A stretch of DNA of 64,000 nucleotides, from the UHGV virus genome UHGV-0132465. One strand, 5' to 3'. This document shows positions 6,989 to 54,932 of the stretch, in pieces. Origin of the DNA: a virus. Every line of letters starts with the position of its first letter. The first letter of the stretch is position 1. The notes below the pieces were generated by a model, which saw only the letters and a list, made by a program, of their open reading frames with translations, made no database searches and had not been told where the DNA came from. The position numbers and the translations under genes are program-made.

Positions 6989-7017
6989 TTGACTTTACTA
7001 TAAATCCACGATATAGT
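6989..7017 (+). promoter_or_regulatory. sigma70-like promoter for the plus-strand block (TTGACT-17-TATAGT)
   Basis: divergent from the 6947-6975 promoter; about 40 nt upstream of the 7058 ATG. Confidence 0.55.
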
Positions 7018-9285: not shown

Positions 9286-9555
9286 ATGTTATACCAGCAG
9301 TACGAACTTCATGCAGAAAAAGAATTAAATTTTGACAGAGATATTCACAGATATTATTATGGGAAAGTTAGAGGTCAAGCAAGAAAGTGTACTCCAACAC
9401 TCTTTTATGCCAGCAGACGACTAGCGCCAGAAGAGGCAACAGCAGAAAGGGTTGCGTACAACTGGAGAGTCACGTATGATATTGACAGATCCGATGTGAT
9501 ATCTGTTTTGGAAAACTTTGAAAACACTTACACACAAGTAGAGGACTTTTACTAA
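9286..9555 (+). CDS. hypothetical protein (89 aa)
   Basis: ORF in co-oriented compact block. Confidence 0.45.
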   Translation: MLYQQYELHAEKELNFDRDIHRYYYGKVRGQARKCTPTLFYASRRLAPEEATAERVAYNWRVTYDIDRSDVISVLENFENTYTQVEDFY

Positions 9556-10739
9556 TGTCAAGAAATGTATTCGAAAGTGGTCAAATCACTGTCCGCGAGT
9601 TGCCAGCTATTATTCAATTTGCCCAGCGTCATAACCGATCTGTCCTGATTTTAGGACCGATGGGTGTGGGAAAGAGCCAGGTGATGAAGCAGATTGCTGA
9701 TAATATGTTCGGTGAGCGAGATGACAACCTGGTTGACGTGCGGCTGTCAGATAAAGATCCTGCTGACTTATCCGGACTGCCTATCCCTGTAGAGTCAGAT
9801 GGAACTACACGTACAGTGTTTGCAATTCCAGAATTTTGGCCTGCAGATCCGAACTGGAGCGGAATTATCTTTCTGGATGAGCTTACTCATGCAGATAACT
9901 ACCTGCAGAAGGTTGCAATGCAAATTATGCTCGACAACAAGTGCGGCACCTATGCATTTCCTAAGGGCTCTGTTTTTGTAGCTGCAGGTAACCGTGCTAC
10001 AGATGGTGCTGTTCTTTCAGCGCTCGAAGCCCCTCTGGCTAACCGCTTTATCATTGTAGAAGTTACAAGCAGTGCAGAGGTATTTATTGAGGACTACGCA
10101 TTCCTTAATGGTGTACACTCCTCTGTAATTGGATATCTGAAAAGAGTTCCATCAGCTATCGATAATTATGAGGCTATGGCTGAGATTAATTGTCCATCTT
10201 TTGCCACACCGCGATCTTGGGTTGCTGCATCTGACATCTTGCACGATTTTGACAGCGGTATTATTTCTGACGCTATGGCTCGTGTTCTTCTGCAAGGTGC
10301 TATTGGTCACACTGCAGCGGTGGAAATCTGGACCTACCACACTAAGAAACGAAACTTGCCAGAAATCGGTCGGATTATGGCAGGGGGTTGCAAAGAATAT
10401 GTAGGTCCTAAGCAGCCAGATATCTTGTGGATTCTTGGGTCTGAAGGTTGTATTGCTATTCGGAATATGATGGAAAATGCAAGTGTCTCGGACGAAGACC
10501 TTGTTAGCTGCGTGGCAAACTTCCTCGATTTCCTTTGGGAAAATTTCAAAGATGAAAACCGAGACTTTGTATTCTCAGTCTTTATGGCGATGATGAAACC
10601 AAACGCTCTAGGAAATGCCTTGCTTATTGGTAAAGGCAGGGACAAGATCGTTGCTCAGCTGATCAAAGCATACCCAAACCTGATGAAGATTGTAAAAGAG
10701 TTTGGTGAAGAGTTTAGCGCCATTTTAGCTAAAGCTTGA
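9555..10739 (+). CDS. MoxR-type AAA+ ATPase (AAA_5-like)
   Basis: Walker A LILGPMGVGKSQ, Walker B IIFLDELTHAD, size and layout typical of MoxR/CoxD ATPases. Confidence 0.65.
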   Translation: MSRNVFESGQITVRELPAIIQFAQRHNRSVLILGPMGVGKSQVMKQIADNMFGERDDNLVDVRLSDKDPADLSGLPIPVESDGTTRTVFAIPEFWPADPNWSGIIFLDELTHADNYLQKVAMQIMLDNKCGTYAFPKGSVFVAAGNRATDGAVLSALEAPLANRFIIVEVTSSAEVFIEDYAFLNGVHSSVIGYLKRVPSAIDNYEAMAEINCPSFATPRSWVAASDILHDFDSGIISDAMARVLLQGAIGHTAAVEIWTYHTKKRNLPEIGRIMAGGCKEYVGPKQPDILWILGSEGCIAIRNMMENASVSDEDLVSCVANFLDFLWENFKDENRDFVFSVFMAMMKPNALGNALLIGKGRDKIVAQLIKAYPNLMKIVKEFGEEFSAILAKA

Positions 10740-10748
10740 GGAGGTTGT

Positions 10749-11129
10749 ATGGCTAAAGCAGGTAAGAGGGGAAACTACCTGGTGATATTGACCGAGGAGC
10801 CGGAGAAGGAGTACGAATGCAGCTCCACTTGCGTGATCGATATCCGAGAAAAAGATGTAGATGAAATCTGGTTTAAAATATTGGACGCTTGCGACAGCAG
10901 TGACTATTTCTTCATCTATGTCAACGATAAAGCGGGGTTCTTCCATGACGATGGTGAGTTACCGTATGAAATCTATGAACTTGTAGAGGCTTGCCATCGT
11001 GGAGATGCGGAGTTGTTTGGTCTACGGCTGAAAAGCGGTAAATTCTTCTATCAAGATGAATGCATGAATCTTCACAACTTCGTAGAGGGGACTTGCAACG
11101 ATGGAGAGATTTTGGCACACTACGATTAA
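10749..11129 (+). CDS. hypothetical protein (126 aa)
   Basis: ORF with GAGGAGG RBS. Confidence 0.5.
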   Translation: MAKAGKRGNYLVILTEEPEKEYECSSTCVIDIREKDVDEIWFKILDACDSSDYFFIYVNDKAGFFHDDGELPYEIYELVEACHRGDAELFGLRLKSGKFFYQDECMNLHNFVEGTCNDGEILAHYD

Positions 11130-11178
11130 TTTCTAAGACACACCCCGCTTCGGCGGGGATTTTCTATTTGGAGTTATT

Positions 11179-11679
11179 GTGAAAATTAAGATCTTTGCTA
11201 TTATTTTGAGCGCATTTTTATCGCTGCCTGTTGTTGCAGCACCAAAACAAAAAGTGTATCACACCTGCAAGCCGTCTGATACTAAGGAAAACATTCTGGC
11301 ATGCAATATCTACAGGGAGGCTAGAGGGGATGGCACGATGGGTATGCTGGCATCTGGGTTTGCCACACTAAACAGGAAATCTCACCCCAAATACCCAGAC
11401 ACTATAAGAAAGATTGTCTACCAACCTAACCAGTTTTCGTGGACAAACCACGGCAAAACTTTTAAGGTGACAGAAAAAGATTCATGGGATCACGCTAAAA
11501 GTCTTGCAAAGATGCTTCTAAAGGTCTATAATAACAACCATGTTGCATACATGGCTATGGATATAACAGGTGGAGCAACACACTACCATACAACAAAAGT
11601 ACGACCGAAATGGGCAAAAAAGATGCAGAGGACAGCTCAATTCGGGAGTCATATCTACTACAAGGAGCGCAATAAATGA
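11179..11679 (+). CDS. secreted SleB/CwlJ-family cell-wall hydrolase-like protein
   Basis: N-terminal signal peptide MKIKIFAIILSAFLSLPVVAA; NIYREARGD ... NR ... QPNQFSW ... HYH pattern characteristic of Hydrolase_2; GTG start with GGAG RBS. Confidence 0.7.
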   Translation: MKIKIFAIILSAFLSLPVVAAPKQKVYHTCKPSDTKENILACNIYREARGDGTMGMLASGFATLNRKSHPKYPDTIRKIVYQPNQFSWTNHGKTFKVTEKDSWDHAKSLAKMLLKVYNNNHVAYMAMDITGGATHYHTTKVRPKWAKKMQRTAQFGSHIYYKERNK

Positions 11680-13658
11680 TTGTAAACAGCAATGAAACTA
11701 AAGCGGTGCTAACTGGGAATATGGAGGTAACCAGGGGATCAATTTCTCTGAACAAAGAGACTTTTGGGCTAATCATCAAAGGGATTTATGAAGATAAGGT
11801 ACTGGCAAGCTGCCGTGAACCGATCTTCAATGCTGTGGACTCCCATGTTGAGTCTGGACGGGGTGATGTTCCGATCATCATTCACTCCCCTACAGACCTT
11901 GAACCATACTTCTTTGTGCAGGACGTTGGATTAGGCATGTCAGAAGAGATGGTCCGCAACACCTTCATGAACCTCGGAGAGTCAACCAAGCGCAACAGCA
12001 ACGCTCTGGTAGGCAATAAAGGTGTTGGTTCAAAGGCCCCGTTCAGTATGGTGGACACTTTCGATGTAATCAGTGTGCACAACGGTGTGGAAAGCACATA
12101 CCTATTGTTCTTGGACCAGGGTATCCCAAATGTCACCAAGATCCGTGAGCGGAAGACTGAAGAGCACAATGGGGTAAAAGTTCAGTTTCATGTTAAGAAA
12201 GAGCATGTTCTGAAATATCGCACCGCTATTGCATCATGCCTGCGCTATGCAAAATTTCCGTTCACTGTCACCGATCCGATGACGAGCAAGATGCTGGAGG
12301 GGGACAAAGTAGAGGCGCAGTATTATTATGAAAAAGATGGTTGGAAGATGACCATCCTGAAGGGCTACACCAGCTCTGACGAGAGTCGTGTGGTAATGGG
12401 TCACCAACCTTATCGTTCTAAGTTCCTGGAGACACTAACAGATTATCCTGCAATTTGTGTAGAGATCCCTATCGGAGATTGCAATATTAACCCAGGGCGT
12501 GAATGGACCATAGAAGGTCACGACGATGGTGGATTCCAAGAGCGTTTGGAAGCTTTTGTCAAAGAAGGCATTCGCCTTCGTGGAGCAGAAGTTGTTGCAG
12601 AATTGGAGACAGCAAAAACATCCTCAGAAGCACGCGAGATGATGAAGAACAGCGGAGTGTTCGGGCACATCTTCGGTAAGAATTTTATGTATGACCGCTG
12701 GGAAGAAACAGGGCTAGGGAATTTGGGAGACTGCGAGATCTTCGCAGGTGGCTTAAACAAAGGCCGCATAGGCTACTCTTGTTACGGAAAGGTAGAATTC
12801 CTACGGGGAATCTATTTAGTATTTAACGACGGAGACGGAAAATACAACCGGAATAAATGTAACTACTTAAGCGAGATTACCGGACGCAACGTTTTCTATT
12901 GCCGTAACACGGATCTGGTGAAAGAGTTTAAAGAGGCGGCACACCATCCGTTTTTTGCAGATACGGTCAAATTGTTATCGGAGCTTCCACGCCGACCTAC
13001 GAAGAAAGGTGAAACCAAAACCCGTTATGAGCCCGGTTATTGGGTTAAAAAACTTGAGAAGGATGGTTACTTCCGCCGTGAGCGTATTACTAAGGCAGAG
13101 TTCAGGAAGATTAAGCACTGCATTCCTTATGAGGGAGATATTCAACGTGGAAGTTGTTGGCTGGGACAAATGAGTAACATCTACCAGCAAGATTATGACC
13201 GTGTTCGTGCGGCACTCCAGATTCCTGAAGGGGAAGACCTATACCTAGTATCGGAATCTCGCCTGCTTTGGACTGATCCTGATTGCCAGTATGTTACAGA
13301 GAAAAATGTGGAACATTTGTTGAAAGAGGATGCTTGGAAATTCTTACTAACTCGCGCAGCAAATGAAACTTCATATGACAGCCTGTACAGACAGTTAGGT
13401 AAAATTATCCCCATGCAGGATTTTGGAAATTATCGGCCACATTTCCACAAGTGGGAAGGTAGCACCACGTGGAAGTACGGTGAGCTAAATCATCGTGCCA
13501 AAATCTTAATCGCCAACCGGGTTAAGTGCGGGAAGGCCTATATTGCAAGATTGGAAAAGAAATATCCACTTTTGAAGCATGTAGGCTTGAAATATTGGGA
13601 CACTCCTGCTATGATTGAATACCGTGAACTGATTGATACAAAGAATAACATCAAATAA
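11676..13658 (+). CDS. rIIA: rIIA-like protein with N-terminal GHKL ATPase domain
   Basis: GHKL boxes NAVDS, DVGLGMS, GNKGVGSKAPF...DTFDVIS resembling T4 rIIA; immediately upstream of an rIIB homologue. Confidence 0.7.
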   Translation: MIVNSNETKAVLTGNMEVTRGSISLNKETFGLIIKGIYEDKVLASCREPIFNAVDSHVESGRGDVPIIIHSPTDLEPYFFVQDVGLGMSEEMVRNTFMNLGESTKRNSNALVGNKGVGSKAPFSMVDTFDVISVHNGVESTYLLFLDQGIPNVTKIRERKTEEHNGVKVQFHVKKEHVLKYRTAIASCLRYAKFPFTVTDPMTSKMLEGDKVEAQYYYEKDGWKMTILKGYTSSDESRVVMGHQPYRSKFLETLTDYPAICVEIPIGDCNINPGREWTIEGHDDGGFQERLEAFVKEGIRLRGAEVVAELETAKTSSEAREMMKNSGVFGHIFGKNFMYDRWEETGLGNLGDCEIFAGGLNKGRIGYSCYGKVEFLRGIYLVFNDGDGKYNRNKCNYLSEITGRNVFYCRNTDLVKEFKEAAHHPFFADTVKLLSELPRRPTKKGETKTRYEPGYWVKKLEKDGYFRRERITKAEFRKIKHCIPYEGDIQRGSCWLGQMSNIYQQDYDRVRAALQIPEGEDLYLVSESRLLWTDPDCQYVTEKNVEHLLKEDAWKFLLTRAANETSYDSLYRQLGKIIPMQDFGNYRPHFHKWEGSTTWKYGELNHRAKILIANRVKCGKAYIARLEKKYPLLKHVGLKYWDTPAMIEYRELIDTKNNIK

Positions 13659-13668
13659 GGAGACCAAG

Positions 13669-14874
13669 ATGATTTTCATCTACGAACATTTCAAAACTCG
13701 TAAAGAAGCACGTGACCGCCGTGCAGAGCTTGAGAAGAAGGGTTTCACATGCGCTATTGAGAAAGGTAACACAACCTGGACACTGGCAGTGGGTGCCCCA
13801 GAGTTGTTCGATCCTGACCGTGACAGCGTCTGCTACACCCGTGAGGATTTTGAAACCCGTGAAGAGGCCCGTTTATTTCGATATGGGCTGGAAGATAACG
13901 GTAAGTACGCCATGATCTTAGACTTAGGAGAAGGTTCCGTTAAACGTTGGAGCGTGGTATATCCACTGTGTGTTGTTCACGGTGTAGGGTTCACCGGGGT
14001 AGCAATCAAATCAGAAGAGCCTTCGGTAGAAGTCAAAGATCCGGTGCTGGAGGTGGTGAGTAGTGTGTCTCAACAACAGACCCGAAGCATCGAGCCTTTG
14101 GTGGTTATTTGCGGGGAACTCCTCCAGATCACCTGCAACGAAGGTATTTTTGAAATTCGCCGCAGTGAAAGTGAGGAAGTTTACCAGAAAGTCTTCGACC
14201 ATATCTCTGTTCAGGAATATGACGAGGCAATTGGTGAAATCCTTGTCTGGTTGGAACGCAAGAATGAGTTCACTACACTTGCAGACAACCTAATCATGAA
14301 AGATGGTAAGCTCTACTACTACGGTGTAGAGATGCGATCCACCATTGCAAAGAAAATTGAGAAAGATTATGCAGACGGAACACTGGATGACCGCTATGTG
14401 AAATTCCTCGTTCGCCTGCTACGCAATCCTTCTGCAAAATCTGTAAACATGCTCTACGATTTTATGCAGGCAAACGACATTCAGATTGCAGAAGATGGTC
14501 GAATCATTTGCTACAAAGGGGTTCAGTTTAACGGCGACAAGTGGGTGGATTGGCACAGTGGTAAAGTCCCACAATACCAGGGAGCTTTTGTATCCATGCC
14601 TCGTAACTTTGTAGAGGATGATCCGGAAGCTGCATGCTCTTATGGTCTGCACTGTGCCAGCAAAGAGTATGCAAAGAGCTACGGCACTGTGATGACGGTT
14701 ATGGTTGACCCTGCCGATGTAGTCAGTGTACCTTACCAACACAACAGCGCTAAGTGCCGTGCATGCCGCTACGAAATCGTAGTAGCTCCAGAATCGCGCA
14801 AAGATGGAGACCCAATCGAGTACGTGGTTGACCGCGACGGTAACACTATCGACATTATCTACGAGGAGGCGTAA
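13669..14874 (+). CDS. rIIB: rIIB-like protein
   Basis: C-terminal half aligns by eye with T4 rIIB (NPSAKSV..LYDF..ANDI.I.EDG, MPR..VEDDPEAACSYGLHCASKEY, VDPADVVSVP...AKCRACRYEIV); start set at RBS-preceded ATG. Confidence 0.8.
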   Translation: MIFIYEHFKTRKEARDRRAELEKKGFTCAIEKGNTTWTLAVGAPELFDPDRDSVCYTREDFETREEARLFRYGLEDNGKYAMILDLGEGSVKRWSVVYPLCVVHGVGFTGVAIKSEEPSVEVKDPVLEVVSSVSQQQTRSIEPLVVICGELLQITCNEGIFEIRRSESEEVYQKVFDHISVQEYDEAIGEILVWLERKNEFTTLADNLIMKDGKLYYYGVEMRSTIAKKIEKDYADGTLDDRYVKFLVRLLRNPSAKSVNMLYDFMQANDIQIAEDGRIICYKGVQFNGDKWVDWHSGKVPQYQGAFVSMPRNFVEDDPEAACSYGLHCASKEYAKSYGTVMTVMVDPADVVSVPYQHNSAKCRACRYEIVVAPESRKDGDPIEYVVDRDGNTIDIIYEEA

Positions 14875-16244
14875 TGGAAAAAGGGCAGTACGATGTAGGC
14901 ACAGATGCTGCCCTTGTTGCAATCATGAGTGGTGAGAATGTCTTCGTAAGCGGACCTGGTGGGACCGGGAAGACATATCTTATCAACATGATCCAGTCCA
15001 TGTATGGAGACTCTTGCATAACGGTTGCCCCGACAGGGGTAGCCGCTTTAAACGTTAATGGAGCAACAGCTCACCGAACTTTCGATCTTGCCGCAGGTGT
15101 GAGCATGGAGTCAGACTGGACAGCGATAAGGGCAAAAACAGCAAAGCCTCTGAAAAGCAAGGCATTTACCATTCTAATTATCGATGAAATCTCTATGATC
15201 CGTGCTGACAAGTTCATAGAGATGGATAGAAAACTCCGCTTTCTTCGGAAAAATGACAAACCTTTCGGAGGCATTCAGGTGCTATTGTTTGGAGATTTCT
15301 ACCAAGCACCTCCAGTTGTCTCTTCCATGGAGAAGGAAGCCTACTTCAACTTCTACCACACAGACCTGTGTTGCTATACAGAATCCTGGGAGGATCTTAA
15401 TCTTCACAACATAGCCTTAGTAGACCAGTTCCGTCAGGAATCTGTTCGCTTCGCCACAATGTTGAACTGTGTTCGTGAAGGCCGTCGCATAAAAGAGGTT
15501 GTGGCAGAGCTTAACACCCGTTGCTATCATGGTGGTGTCCCAACAGATGCCTTGACCATCTGTGCCACCAATAAGCAAGCAGAGGAGGTGAACAGACGTT
15601 TCTATGATGCCATCAAGGCCCCAGAGAGGACCTACATTGGTAAAATGAAAGGTAAGTTCCCTTCCACACTGCCTGTGGAGCAGGAAATGAGGCTGAAGAT
15701 AGGTATGAAGGTTATGATAACCTCAAACGATGTTGACCCTACTCATAAAGTTCCGTATTATGTCAACGGGACACGTGCCACAGTGGTAAAATTCAAGACC
15801 AAATCCGTGGTAGTTGAGCTAGAAGACGGAACACAGGTTGAAATTGAGCCGAGATTGTGGGAGAATAACGAGTACAAACCTTCCCAGAGGTACAATATTG
15901 CCGAAAGGAAGATGGAGAAGTTTATAGAGAGGGTTGTGATCGGATCTTATGAGCAACTTCCTTTGAAATCTGGGTACGCAGTAACATCGCATAAAAGTCA
16001 AGGACTTACGTTAGATTGTTACAACCTAGACCTCGGAAAGAACGGAGCTTTCTCTCCCGGAATGACGTATGTTGCCTTGAGTCGGGTTAAGACGATACAA
16101 GGAATAAACTTGTTGCGTCCATTAAGAGAGGTGGATATTATTGTTGACCCGAGAGTCGTAGAGTTTTATAATACAACTTTCCCTGGCTTAGACGAGAAAG
16201 TCAGGAAAGATTTTGAAACTAGAGCAGAAAAGGGGGACGTATGA
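14874..16244 (+). CDS. dda: Dda/RecD/Pif1-like SF1 DNA helicase
   Basis: Walker A SGPGGTGKTY, APTGVAA, Walker B IIDEISMI, VTSHKSQGLTLD and YVALSRVKT motifs. Confidence 0.85.
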   Translation: MEKGQYDVGTDAALVAIMSGENVFVSGPGGTGKTYLINMIQSMYGDSCITVAPTGVAALNVNGATAHRTFDLAAGVSMESDWTAIRAKTAKPLKSKAFTILIIDEISMIRADKFIEMDRKLRFLRKNDKPFGGIQVLLFGDFYQAPPVVSSMEKEAYFNFYHTDLCCYTESWEDLNLHNIALVDQFRQESVRFATMLNCVREGRRIKEVVAELNTRCYHGGVPTDALTICATNKQAEEVNRRFYDAIKAPERTYIGKMKGKFPSTLPVEQEMRLKIGMKVMITSNDVDPTHKVPYYVNGTRATVVKFKTKSVVVELEDGTQVEIEPRLWENNEYKPSQRYNIAERKMEKFIERVVIGSYEQLPLKSGYAVTSHKSQGLTLDCYNLDLGKNGAFSPGMTYVALSRVKTIQGINLLRPLREVDIIVDPRVVEFYNTTFPGLDEKVRKDFETRAEKGDV

Positions 16245-17349: not shown

Positions 17350-17832
17350 ATGTCAGATTTTATGTGGAAGGTAGGTTATGCCTCTCCTGAAATGTGTGAG
17401 GCTTGCTTTGTGAAAATAGGCCGCGAGGATATTGACAAAGTGATCCTTAAGTTTCGTGATGTGTCTGTAATCGGCAACCGAGTTCTTAAGCACTTAAAGA
17501 ATCTGAAGCTCACCAAGAAGAAGTTCTTCGGACTTTTCGAAGAGAAAGTTGATGCTTGGACCCATTGCATTCAGGAAGCTAAATCTCACTACAGTGCTAT
17601 CGTTACTCCGGAACGGGTAGCCAAGATGGAAGGATTCATCAACAGCACGGAGTTTGAGTGCCTAAAGGCTGCCCTTGATAGCTATCCAAAGTGCCTCAAA
17701 CACCTTGACAAGTATGTAGAAAAGGATGGTGAAATGTATCTCACCCTAGACGCATACTATGAGATGCAAGAAATTTTAAATTTAGATTTGACATTGGTAT
17801 CTACCGAGTATACAATAGGTATCCGGGTTTAA
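17350..17832 (+). CDS. hypothetical protein (160 aa)
   Basis: ORF with AGGAGAGAG RBS. Confidence 0.5.
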   Translation: MSDFMWKVGYASPEMCEACFVKIGREDIDKVILKFRDVSVIGNRVLKHLKNLKLTKKKFFGLFEEKVDAWTHCIQEAKSHYSAIVTPERVAKMEGFINSTEFECLKAALDSYPKCLKHLDKYVEKDGEMYLTLDAYYEMQEILNLDLTLVSTEYTIGIRV

Positions 17833-17838
17833 CACTAG

Positions 17839-17865
17839 GCCCTGCCCGAAAGGGTGGGGCTTTTT
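17839..17865 (+). terminator. intrinsic terminator (GCCCTGCCC-GAAA-GGGTGGGGC + T5)
   Basis: GC hairpin with GNRA loop followed by TTTTT; identical copy at 27998. Confidence 0.7.
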
Positions 17866-17883
17866 GCATTAGGAGACAGCAAA

Positions 17884-54477: not shown

Positions 54478-54712
54478 TACTGTCCCCTTTTTCAAGATAA
54501 TTATACATCAGCGCCGCGCCACCTAAAATGGCTACCAGCAGTAATACCCCAGAGAGCATTTCAATAAACATGGCTTGAAACATTAGAAGGCCCCCTAATT
54601 TCACGCACCATTTTAAATACATATTCTTTTCCCATAAAGGTGCCCGGCTAAGATCTGCGTAGAATGCAATCTCTTTAAGAACAGTATAAACAGTTTTAGG
54701 TGCGGTATCCAT
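54464..54712 (-). CDS. hypothetical membrane protein (about 82 aa)
   Basis: start moved to MDTAPK after AAAAGGAGAG RBS; two hydrophobic segments. Confidence 0.45.
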   Translation of the reverse strand: MDTAPKTVYTVLKEIAFYADLSRAPLWEKNMYLKWCVKLGGLLMFQAMFIEMLSGVLLLVAILGGAALMYNYLEKGDSNDKK

Positions 54713-54932
54713 CCCTACTCTCCTTTTTCCCCTTACGGATATTCTTGTGGTAATCAACTAGGCACATTATTACGATGAAGATAACAACAGGCCAAAAGGG
54801 CGCAGCAGTGATGATGGTGATAAAATCATCAAACTTCACCCTTCGTGTAGACACGATGCATATACCTGCCAAGATTACTGCTGTTAGAACAGCTACTACC
54901 AGGTAACCTATCAGCACAGCATCTATACTCAT
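54696..54932 (-). CDS. hypothetical membrane protein (78 aa)
   Basis: two hydrophobic segments. Confidence 0.45.
   Translation of the reverse strand: MSIDAVLIGYLVVAVLTAVILAGICIVSTRRVKFDDFITIITAAPFWPVVIFIVIMCLVDYHKNIRKGKKESRDGYRT

Follow-up and report, generated by a model that had tools for sequence, protein, structure and literature searches.

The stretch of DNA analyzed here (the window) comprises 64,000 nucleotides of the virus genome UHGV-0132465. Its positions 11179-14874 hold three tightly packed open reading frames (ORFs), all on the plus strand: a gene for a SleB/CwlJ-family (Hydrolase_2) murein hydrolase (11179-11679; 166 aa, GTG start), which corresponds to gp2 of phage rV5, followed by rIIA (11676-13658) and rIIB (13669-14874). 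An earlier, sequence-only reading had described a Sec-signal-bearing Hydrolase_2 protein encoded directly upstream of rIIA/rIIB, and the Pfam and PHROG matches, the fold, the signal features and the ORF coordinates all agree with that description. We lean toward the view that the product of the first gene is an exported, low-dose accessory murein hydrolase, probably a lytic transglycosylase, and not the principal endolysin.

Identity and predicted export of the hydrolase

The hydrolase matched the Pfam family PF07486 (Hydrolase_2) with 70.4 bits (cutoff 27; E = 2.1e-19) over profile positions 2-100 of 100, and PHROG 938, labeled 'endolysin', with E = 1.7e-27. No other Pfam domain was found in the protein, and its catalytic domain is preceded only by the signal peptide and a 17-residue linker. 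When the sequences of the Protein Data Bank (PDB) were searched with phmmer, the only matches were the catalytic domains of Bacillus SleB (4f55 and 4fet; E = 2.5e-6). An AlphaFold2 model built from 11 sequences had a mean predicted local distance difference test score (pLDDT) of 88.7. With this model, Foldseek again retrieved only 4f55 and 4fet from the PDB (E 1e-5 to 1e-4, target-normalised template modeling (TM) score 0.72-0.79); no other fold appeared at E<1, and all remaining matches had E>2. Taken at the level of sequence and predicted model, these matches place the family membership and the fold of the hydrolase far beyond chance. An orthologue of SleB proper was considered and rejected because the N-terminal PG_binding_1 three-helix domain is absent, which leaves a SleB-like or CwlJ-like protein.

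The putative catalytic residue is Glu47 (codon GAG, 11317-11319, plus strand) in the motif Y-R-E-A-R-G, which aligns with YGESRGE of SleB 4f55/4fet. This glutamate is invariant across eight aligned phage homologues (36-55% identity), as are about 20 further positions, and it is nearly invariant in a further alignment. The catalytic glutamate is reported to be indispensable for SleB's activity as a lytic transglycosylase (PMC12331253), and by analogy the hydrolase is most likely a lytic transglycosylase as well. The catalytic helix is flanked at its start by the cysteines C30 and C42. Six of the eight phage homologues keep this pair, which would be compatible with a periplasmic disulfide. Comparison with phage isim gave 13 synonymous and 0 nonsynonymous differences in the hydrolase gene (nonsynonymous rate dN = 0, synonymous rate dS = 0.136), and dN/dS values of 0.03 for rIIA and 0.02 for rIIB. 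The hydrolase gene is thus under strong purifying selection.

Export of the hydrolase via Sec and signal peptidase I is predicted from its N-terminus, which reads MKIKIFAIILSAFLSLPVVA|APKQK. The predicted Sec signal peptide covers residues 1-20 (11179-11238, plus strand), with cleavage at VVA|AP. By inspection of the sequence, the n-region is basic with two lysines, and the c-region has proline at -4 and V-x-A at -3/-1. The h-region IFAIILSAFLSL consists of 12 residues with a mean Kyte-Doolittle value of 2.71 and is followed by P-V-V-A|A. The segment contains no cysteine and therefore no lipobox, and a hydropathy scan of the whole protein found no further hydrophobic segment. All eight aligned phage homologues have an equivalent hydrophobic segment at the N-terminus, together with a small-x-small site. 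The n-h-c organization is conserved in the homologues from Vequintavirinae, Stephanstirmvirinae and T5-like phages, and in the Pakpunavirus homologue the hydrophobic stretch at the N-terminus is longer.

Signal-anchor-release (SAR) endolysins are recognized by an uncleaved, weakly hydrophobic N-terminal transmembrane domain (TMD) of about 18-20 residues that is rich in Gly, Ala and Ser. Compared by eye with published SAR features, the hydrolase differs, as its h-region is short and strongly hydrophobic and ends in an AxA-type site. In a HMMER search of 1.84 billion cluster representatives, 11,334 relatives of the hydrolase were found at E<=1e-3 and 2,946 at E<=1e-10. Because a signal-like N-terminal hydrophobic stretch is present in 134 of the 150 nearest representatives, a signal peptide followed by a single Hydrolase_2 domain appears to be the ordinary architecture of a very large family.

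Relatives and expression context of the locus

Judged by nucleotide identity, the window belongs to a Vequintavirus, i.e., an rV5-like E. coli myophage, and is another isolate of a known genus. The 4.3-kb region used for comparison is 98% identical to Escherichia phage S127 BCL3, 97.7% to vB_EcoM-ECP26 and 93-96% to dozens of other Vequintavirus genomes; it matches 121 phage records, 85 of which cover at least 80% of the query. The hydrolase itself is at least 99% identical in 72 phage records and 95-99% identical in 44 more. Its relatives are labeled 'cell wall hydrolase', 'SleB' or 'endolysin' in GenBank. For rV5, Table S3 of Kropinski et al. (2013, PMC3606486) lists gene 2 as 'cell wall hydrolase, 166 aa, PF07486', gene 1 as rIIA and gene 238 as rIIB. 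The sequence-only reading had treated the arrangement as unusual; it is in fact standard, both in rV5 (gene 2/gene 1/gene 238) and in at least 85 GenBank relatives. A virion component was considered and rejected, as the passages on virion proteomics in the rV5 paper do not name gp2 among the virion proteins (PMC3606486).

SleB-like homologues occur in all Vequintavirinae genera (Buttimer et al., 2020, PMC7344957). The same study reports that the Certrevirus homologue CB7_83 has a signal peptide and is toxic on expression in E. coli, and that the gene of a class II holin candidate, CB7_82, overlaps the CB7_83 gene (PMC7344957). The gene and most of its description are therefore already known from GenBank and the literature, with the annotation dating from 2013 and the signal peptide from 2020. 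What we add is the upstream hairpin kept in five genera, the GTG or TTG starts in three, the absence of a small two-TMD gene from the Vequintavirus locus, and the full amino-acid conservation relative to isim. Among the GenBank matches are also 16-19 'Campylobacter phage' records (host C. jejuni; e.g., MG065655, MG065659 and MG065677) that are 93-99% identical to E. coli Vequintavirus phages over window positions 10700-15000. These records also carry the LysECP26-type endolysin discussed below, and they look like coliphage contaminants or mislabeled entries.

The hydrolase gene lies in the early/replication block, as the sequence-only reading had it, with a MoxR-like ATPase gene on one side and a Dda/Pif1-like helicase gene on the other. 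It has a Shine-Dalgarno sequence (SD), GGAG, at 11170-11173. Directly before it, at 11143-11169 on the plus strand, is an intrinsic-terminator-like hairpin, CCCCGC-TTCG-GCGGGG followed by ATTTTCTATTT, which is identical to the predicted rV5 terminator t003. This hairpin (-13.1 kcal/mol, z = -3.0) ends 1 nt before the SD, too close to the gene for a promoter to fit in between. Four other genera likewise have a hairpin with a U-tract at this site ahead of the SleB-like gene, and their stems differ in sequence: Klebsiella phage KB57 (Mydovirus; -11.3 kcal/mol), Erwinia phage Hena1 (Henunavirus; -13.6 kcal/mol), Cronobacter phage CR9 (Certrevirus; -16.7 kcal/mol) and Cronobacter phage GAP31 (Seunavirus; -12.1 kcal/mol). 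The hairpins were folded separately; a joint RNAalifold analysis of six phages yielded no usable consensus, the alignment being out of register. The hydrolase start codon, GTG here, is TTG in KB57 and Hena1. Together, terminator read-through and a weak start codon may keep the dose of the hydrolase low, and such low-dose expression would make sense for an enzyme that becomes toxic when overproduced.

A sigma70-type promoter, TTGACT-17-TATAGT, was found at 6989-7017 (plus strand; 10/12 in a consensus scan), with the same sequence as rV5 promoter P010. It probably opens a rightward pre-late unit that includes the hydrolase and rII genes; the rV5 authors defined this rightward unit as genes 10-1-238-164 (PMC3606486). 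A motif scan found no occurrence of the rV5 late-promoter motif TGGTAAAATA between 7000 and 15600, and a late promoter upstream of the hydrolase was rejected on this ground.

The rIIA product (11676-13658, plus strand; 660 aa) has an N-terminal GHKL/HATPase_c_3 domain (PF13589, E = 1.8e-8) and matches PHROG 612 (E = 2.7e-124) over residues 1-658. The stop codon of the hydrolase gene (TGA) overlaps the rIIA start codon as ATGA, and the AAGGAG SD of rIIA lies inside the 3' end of the hydrolase gene. Between the hydrolase, rIIA and rIIB genes there is no strong GC-rich terminator, only weak consensus matches. Both features bear out the coupling to rIIA/rIIB that had been suggested. The rIIB gene (13669-14874, plus strand; 401 aa) matches PHROG 609 over its C-terminal 240 aa (E = 1.6e-61). 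Its start was placed at ATG 13669, with an AGGAG SD 8 nt upstream and as annotated in relatives, and TTG 13633, the start given by the ORF finder, was rejected. The next gene (14874-16244, plus strand) encodes the Dda/Pif1-like helicase (PF05970, E = 1.8e-33; PHROG 325), the conserved downstream neighbor of the hydrolase/rII module across Vequintavirinae.

Residues 1-100 of rIIB (13669-13970) are made up of two beta-alpha-beta-beta repeats that lie ahead of the C-terminal rIIB core; the repeats are conserved and show the motif F-x-[ST]-R-x-[DE]-A-R ... W-x-V. Against the Pfam SPOR family, the whole protein scored 19.2 bits, below the cutoff of 21, and the N-terminus alone 22-23.6 bits. Foldseek gave a weak local match of the N-terminus to CwlC SPOR among generic beta-alpha-beta-beta matches, a PDB sequence search with this segment gave no match, and a homologue search with it alone returned only two fragments. 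A possible peptidoglycan-binding-type fold in rIIB, which carries no export signal and adjoins a murein hydrolase, is curious but unproven.

Some further features of the region were noted. The gene directly upstream of the hydrolase (10749-11129, plus strand; 126 aa, acidic, PHROG 12370) has a counterpart listed as a T5.083 homologue in rV5 Table S3 (PMC3606486); other genera do not retain it ahead of the hydrolase gene. An 11/12 sigma70 match, TTGACA-17-TATTAT, is located at 9332-9360 (plus strand) within ORF 9286-9555, a short way upstream of the gene for the MoxR-like ATPase; the published rV5 promoter list does not contain it. At 17788-17862 (plus strand), a sigma70-type promoter close to the consensus, TTGACA-17-TACAAT (rV5 P231), precedes a strong terminator hairpin (rV5 t232) by about 20 nt, which would give either a very short transcript or a terminator of the upstream unit overlapping the next promoter.

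The gene order around the hydrolase differs between genera. In Henunavirus, the hydrolase gene is followed by a gene for a 77-aa two-TMD protein, rIIA, rIIB and the Pif1 helicase gene, and in Mydovirus by an unannotated 51-aa two-TMD ORF, rIIA, rIIB and the helicase gene. Seunavirus (GAP31, PVP-SE1, LNA4) has the hydrolase gene, a gene for a 57-aa protein and rIIA; Certrevirus has the hydrolase, a holin candidate and the helicase, and no rII genes. In the Vequintavirus locus of the window, rIIA overlaps the hydrolase gene and the small membrane gene is absent. The Seunavirus 57-aa protein, MKSILLLCVCIIPYLVILSLTQWMFWEQVSGAYALGLLAGIYIVRKARKRNPINNCK, has two TMDs, the second rich in Gly and Ala, and a highly basic C-terminus, and by these features it looks like a typical class II holin or pinholin. 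In KB57 the two-TMD ORF lies at 142823-142975 (51 aa), and in GAP31 it is GAP31_002 (57 aa). Such 51-57-aa ORFs share 47-100% identity across 60 Mydovirus and Seunavirus records, in many of which they are not annotated; the small Hena1 protein had no relatives in the phage collection. A search of the window found no homologue of the sister-genus gene, and the idea of a relocated copy there was rejected.

The SleB-like gene is kept in every Vequintavirinae genus, and the rIIA/rIIB pair is conserved in Mydovirus, Henunavirus and Seunavirus. Outside the subfamily, in Stephanstirmvirinae, T5-like phages, Pakpunavirus, one Vibrio phage and Menderavirus, the hydrolase gene does not adjoin rII genes, so that the rII linkage is a trait of the subfamily and not a general rule. 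A comparison of eight phage lineages showed no homology among the genes that come before the hydrolase, and a conserved upstream partner such as an inhibitor or immunity protein was rejected for this reason.

Lysis genes of relatives and a holin candidate in the window

No holin or spanin gene adjoins the hydrolase gene, consistent with the earlier statement that it is not part of a recognizable lysis cassette. A canonical holin-dependent endolysin also appears a poor description, given the signal-like N-terminus, the ATPase, rIIA/rIIB and helicase neighbors, the sigma70-type promoter and the missing late motif. In rV5, Gp89 was called the 'obvious lysin' (PMC3606486). The orthologue LysECP26, 98% identical to it, lysed 29 of 29 Gram-negative strains as a purified protein once their outer membrane had been permeabilised (PMC9728275). 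LysECP26 has a lambda-R-like sequence without a signal peptide, matches PHROG 90 'endolysin' (E = 8e-56), and has homologues of at least 80% identity in at least 92 phage records. Its gene in ECP26 is at 87949-88419, about 70 kb away from the hydrolase gene at 17374-17874. A tblastn search of the 64-kb window with a lambda R query found no lambda-R-like endolysin; by collinearity with relatives, the expected position is about 14 kb past the window end. Genes for an i-spanin and an o-spanin adjoin the terminase gene in relatives, also beyond the window.

The rV5 authors found no holin homologue and put forward gp129, a 78-aa protein whose two TMDs are accompanied by a basic C-terminus (PMC3606486); no other holin candidate has been published for rV5. 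The homologue of gp129 in the window (54696-54932, minus strand; 78 aa) has two TMDs by hydropathy and a Lys/Arg-rich C-terminus; it falls in PHROG 10061, of unknown function, lies 43 kb from the hydrolase gene and shows no similarity to the two-TMD proteins of the sister genera. The 68-aa 'putative membrane protein' encoded directly after LysECP26 (ECP26 88483-88689; PHROG 4641, unknown function) has one N-terminal hydrophobic segment with cysteines (FMAACLACG), and in sequence it resembles a signal-bearing protein or lipoprotein more than a holin. The sequence-only reading had raised the possibility of a canonical endolysin-holin cassette elsewhere. The lambda-R-type LysECP26 and the spanins of relatives that are 93-98% identical answer to part of it, whereas only a candidate is at hand for the holin; the relatives have a proven canonical endolysin and spanins but no tidy endolysin-holin cassette.

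A second muralytic enzyme beside a signal-bearing Hydrolase_2 protein is also found in other phages. PaP1 has g072, a purified endolysin, besides the hydrolase g029; T5 is known for its M15 endolysin (PDB 2MXZ); and in Phapecoctavirus PF00959 and PF07486 proteins occur together. Certrevirus phages combine an M15 or lysozyme-like enzyme with the SleB-like protein (PMC7344957), and PVP-SE1 has the characterized endolysin gp146 (PMC3352856) besides the Hydrolase_2 protein. By sequence family, the Hydrolase_2 protein is constant and the second enzyme differs by lineage, which is typical of endolysins. This argues for a conserved role of the SleB-like protein that is distinct from that of the principal endolysin.

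Possible roles and comparison with known systems

In the reading that we prefer, transcription of the hydrolase gene by host RNA polymerase would begin at the sigma70-type promoter that opens the rightward pre-late unit, and only transcripts that read through the intrinsic terminator just upstream would reach the gene. The weak GTG start would allow little hydrolase to be made, and ribosomes that finish it could re-initiate on rIIA via the ATGA overlap. The protein would be exported by Sec and cut by signal peptidase I after VVA(20). The mature, basic 16.9-kDa enzyme, possibly stabilized by a C30-C42 disulfide, would then nick or remodel the sacculus during the latent period. Final lysis would be carried out by the cytoplasmic lambda-R-type endolysin, a holin (candidate: the gp129 homologue) and spanins, and the pre-exported hydrolase would speed lysis or make it more robust. 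Because a validated endolysin is encoded elsewhere in relatives, an accessory rather than a principal role is favored; of the two options that had been put forward for the protein, a signal-peptide endolysin or a periplasmic remodeling factor, the evidence favors an accessory enzyme over the principal endolysin. During PAK_P3 infection cell-wall precursors accumulate, which the authors tentatively credit to the Hydrolase_2 homologue gp151. Together with the toxicity of CB7_83, this build-up may offer indirect support by analogy.

Several points weigh against an accessory role. The export, enzymatic activity, low dosage, timing and physiological role of the hydrolase are all inferred from sequence features, and the canonical endolysin of this genome is deduced from relatives at a position beyond the 64-kb window. 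Many annotation pipelines label the hydrolase 'endolysin'. SleB needs muramic-delta-lactam, which is not present in E. coli. In addition, the holin-like two-TMD gene directly after the hydrolase gene in Seunavirus, Mydovirus, Henunavirus and Certrevirus makes the sister-genus locus look like a genuine endolysin-holin pair, which favors a secreted endolysin. Such an enzyme, similar to Lys44 of Oenococcus phage fOg44 and SAR-like in function, would be exported early and stay inactive until a holin or pinholin collapses the proton-motive force (PMF), and rIIA/rIIB would guard against premature collapse. This would give the rII linkage a rationale, and it agrees with the cleavable-type signal peptide predicted on the hydrolase, with the toxicity of the CB7_83 homologue (PMC7344957), with the 'endolysin' label of PHROG 938 and many records, and with the 51-77-aa two-TMD protein encoded immediately downstream in four sister genera, often followed by rIIA-rIIB and with a basic C-terminus in Seunavirus and Mydovirus. 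We nevertheless regard it as doubtful, since the holin-like gene is absent from the locus in Vequintavirus with no homologue in the window, a conventional, experimentally active endolysin exists in relatives, and the short, strongly hydrophobic h-region with its AxA site is not SAR-like. We also know of no PMF-dependent restraint on free periplasmic enzymes of Gram-negative bacteria after signal cleavage, which counts against this explanation too.

A periplasmic role without any part in lysis is unlikely in our estimate. The hydrolase might release muropeptides or redirect wall precursors in an auxiliary metabolic role, block septation or enlarge the cell, or change the sacculus so as to hinder superinfecting phages, but the case for each of these jobs is indirect. 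In T5-like phages, Pakpunavirus, Stephanstirmvirinae and a Vibrio phage, among many large and virulent phages that are not related to each other, homologues do lie in the early/replication block; upstream of the one in Stenotrophomonas phage Mendera are tail-fiber and head-fiber genes. The PAK_P3 metabolomics data, with precursors accumulating during infection, also speak for such a role, and the dosage limit set by terminator and weak start would suit an enzyme that has to leave the cell intact. On the other hand, the holin-like and rII genes with which it is associated in Vequintavirinae suggest lysis control, and a homologue is toxic when expressed. Very improbable is a degenerate SleB-like protein that only binds peptidoglycan or is a dispensable remnant. 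The natural substrate of SleB is absent from E. coli and the N-terminal peptidoglycan-binding domain of SleB is missing here, but distant phage homologues do not vary at the catalytic glutamate or at about 20 further positions, the 13 changes relative to isim are all synonymous with no nonsynonymous one, and the gene is retained in every Vequintavirinae genus.

A broader and quite speculative idea, to which we give little credence, is that the hydrolase, the two-TMD protein of the sister genera and rIIA/rIIB descend from one ancestral lysis-timing module of the Vequintavirinae. The hydrolase would be exported in advance, and the pinholin-like protein would trigger it by membrane depolarization. 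The co-translated rII proteins would keep the membrane energized against premature release, e.g., by abortive-infection systems. In this scenario the pinholin would be missing from Vequintavirus by loss, and the genus would now depend on an acquired lambda-R-type endolysin and gp129. The weak, unproven SPOR-like repeats of rIIB might fit a peptidoglycan-related role in such a module.

A second, SleB-like hydrolase, predicted to be exported and encoded among non-late genes beside a conventional endolysin, is found in many large virulent phages that infect Gram-negative bacteria, among them rV5-, PVP-SE1-, phi92-, T5- and PAK_P1-like phages. If the hydrolase indeed weakens the wall in advance or serves as a PMF-gated back-up lysin, the holin-endolysin-spanin model would be refined, and the conserved rIIA/rIIB linkage in Vequintavirinae might be explained. 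A lysis-timing module, if real, would give the rII proteins a concrete mechanistic partner. Enzybiotic screens may be led astray by the automated 'endolysin' label, since in this genus another protein is the validated endolysin.

Among known systems, the closest is rV5 gp2 with its orthologues (ECP26DNA_00024, isim_65 and the slur16 'endolysin'), which have the same 166 aa at 99% identity and the same neighbors, i.e., the T5.083-like gene, the t003 terminator, the hydrolase, rIIA, rIIB and the helicase; there is no substantive difference from the window. Gp83 of Pectobacterium phage CB7 and gp087 of Cronobacter phage CR3 are also SleB-like, carry a signal peptide and are encoded upstream of the same helicase block. 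They are about 50% identical to the hydrolase, Certrevirus has no rIIA/rIIB, and it is a holin candidate that overlaps the hydrolase gene there, whereas it is rIIA here. LysECP26 and rV5 gp89 resemble the hydrolase in being small basic muralytic enzymes of the same phage genus, but LysECP26 has no signal peptide, belongs to another fold family, is encoded about 70 kb away and is experimentally active.

Bacillus SleB and CwlJ (PF07486; 4f55, 4fet) share the catalytic fold and the glutamate motif with the hydrolase, which is a single-domain protein like CwlJ. Identity to SleB is 19-24%, and the PG_binding_1 domain of SleB is missing. Unlike SleB and CwlJ, the hydrolase comes from a virulent phage, whose host is Gram-negative and has no muramic-delta-lactam cortex, and it has a predicted Sec signal for the periplasm. 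The comparison can be extended to secreted and SAR endolysins with pinholins. Lys44 of fOg44, Lyz of P1 and R of phage 21 are likewise N-terminally targeted muralytic enzymes that reach the wall without a large-hole holin, and the sister genera of the window phage also carry an adjacent two-TMD holin-like gene. In contrast to these endolysins, the hydrolase is of an unrelated catalytic family, has a cleavable-looking signal and no adjacent holin, and is encoded in a pre-late operon in a genus that possesses a second, conventional endolysin.

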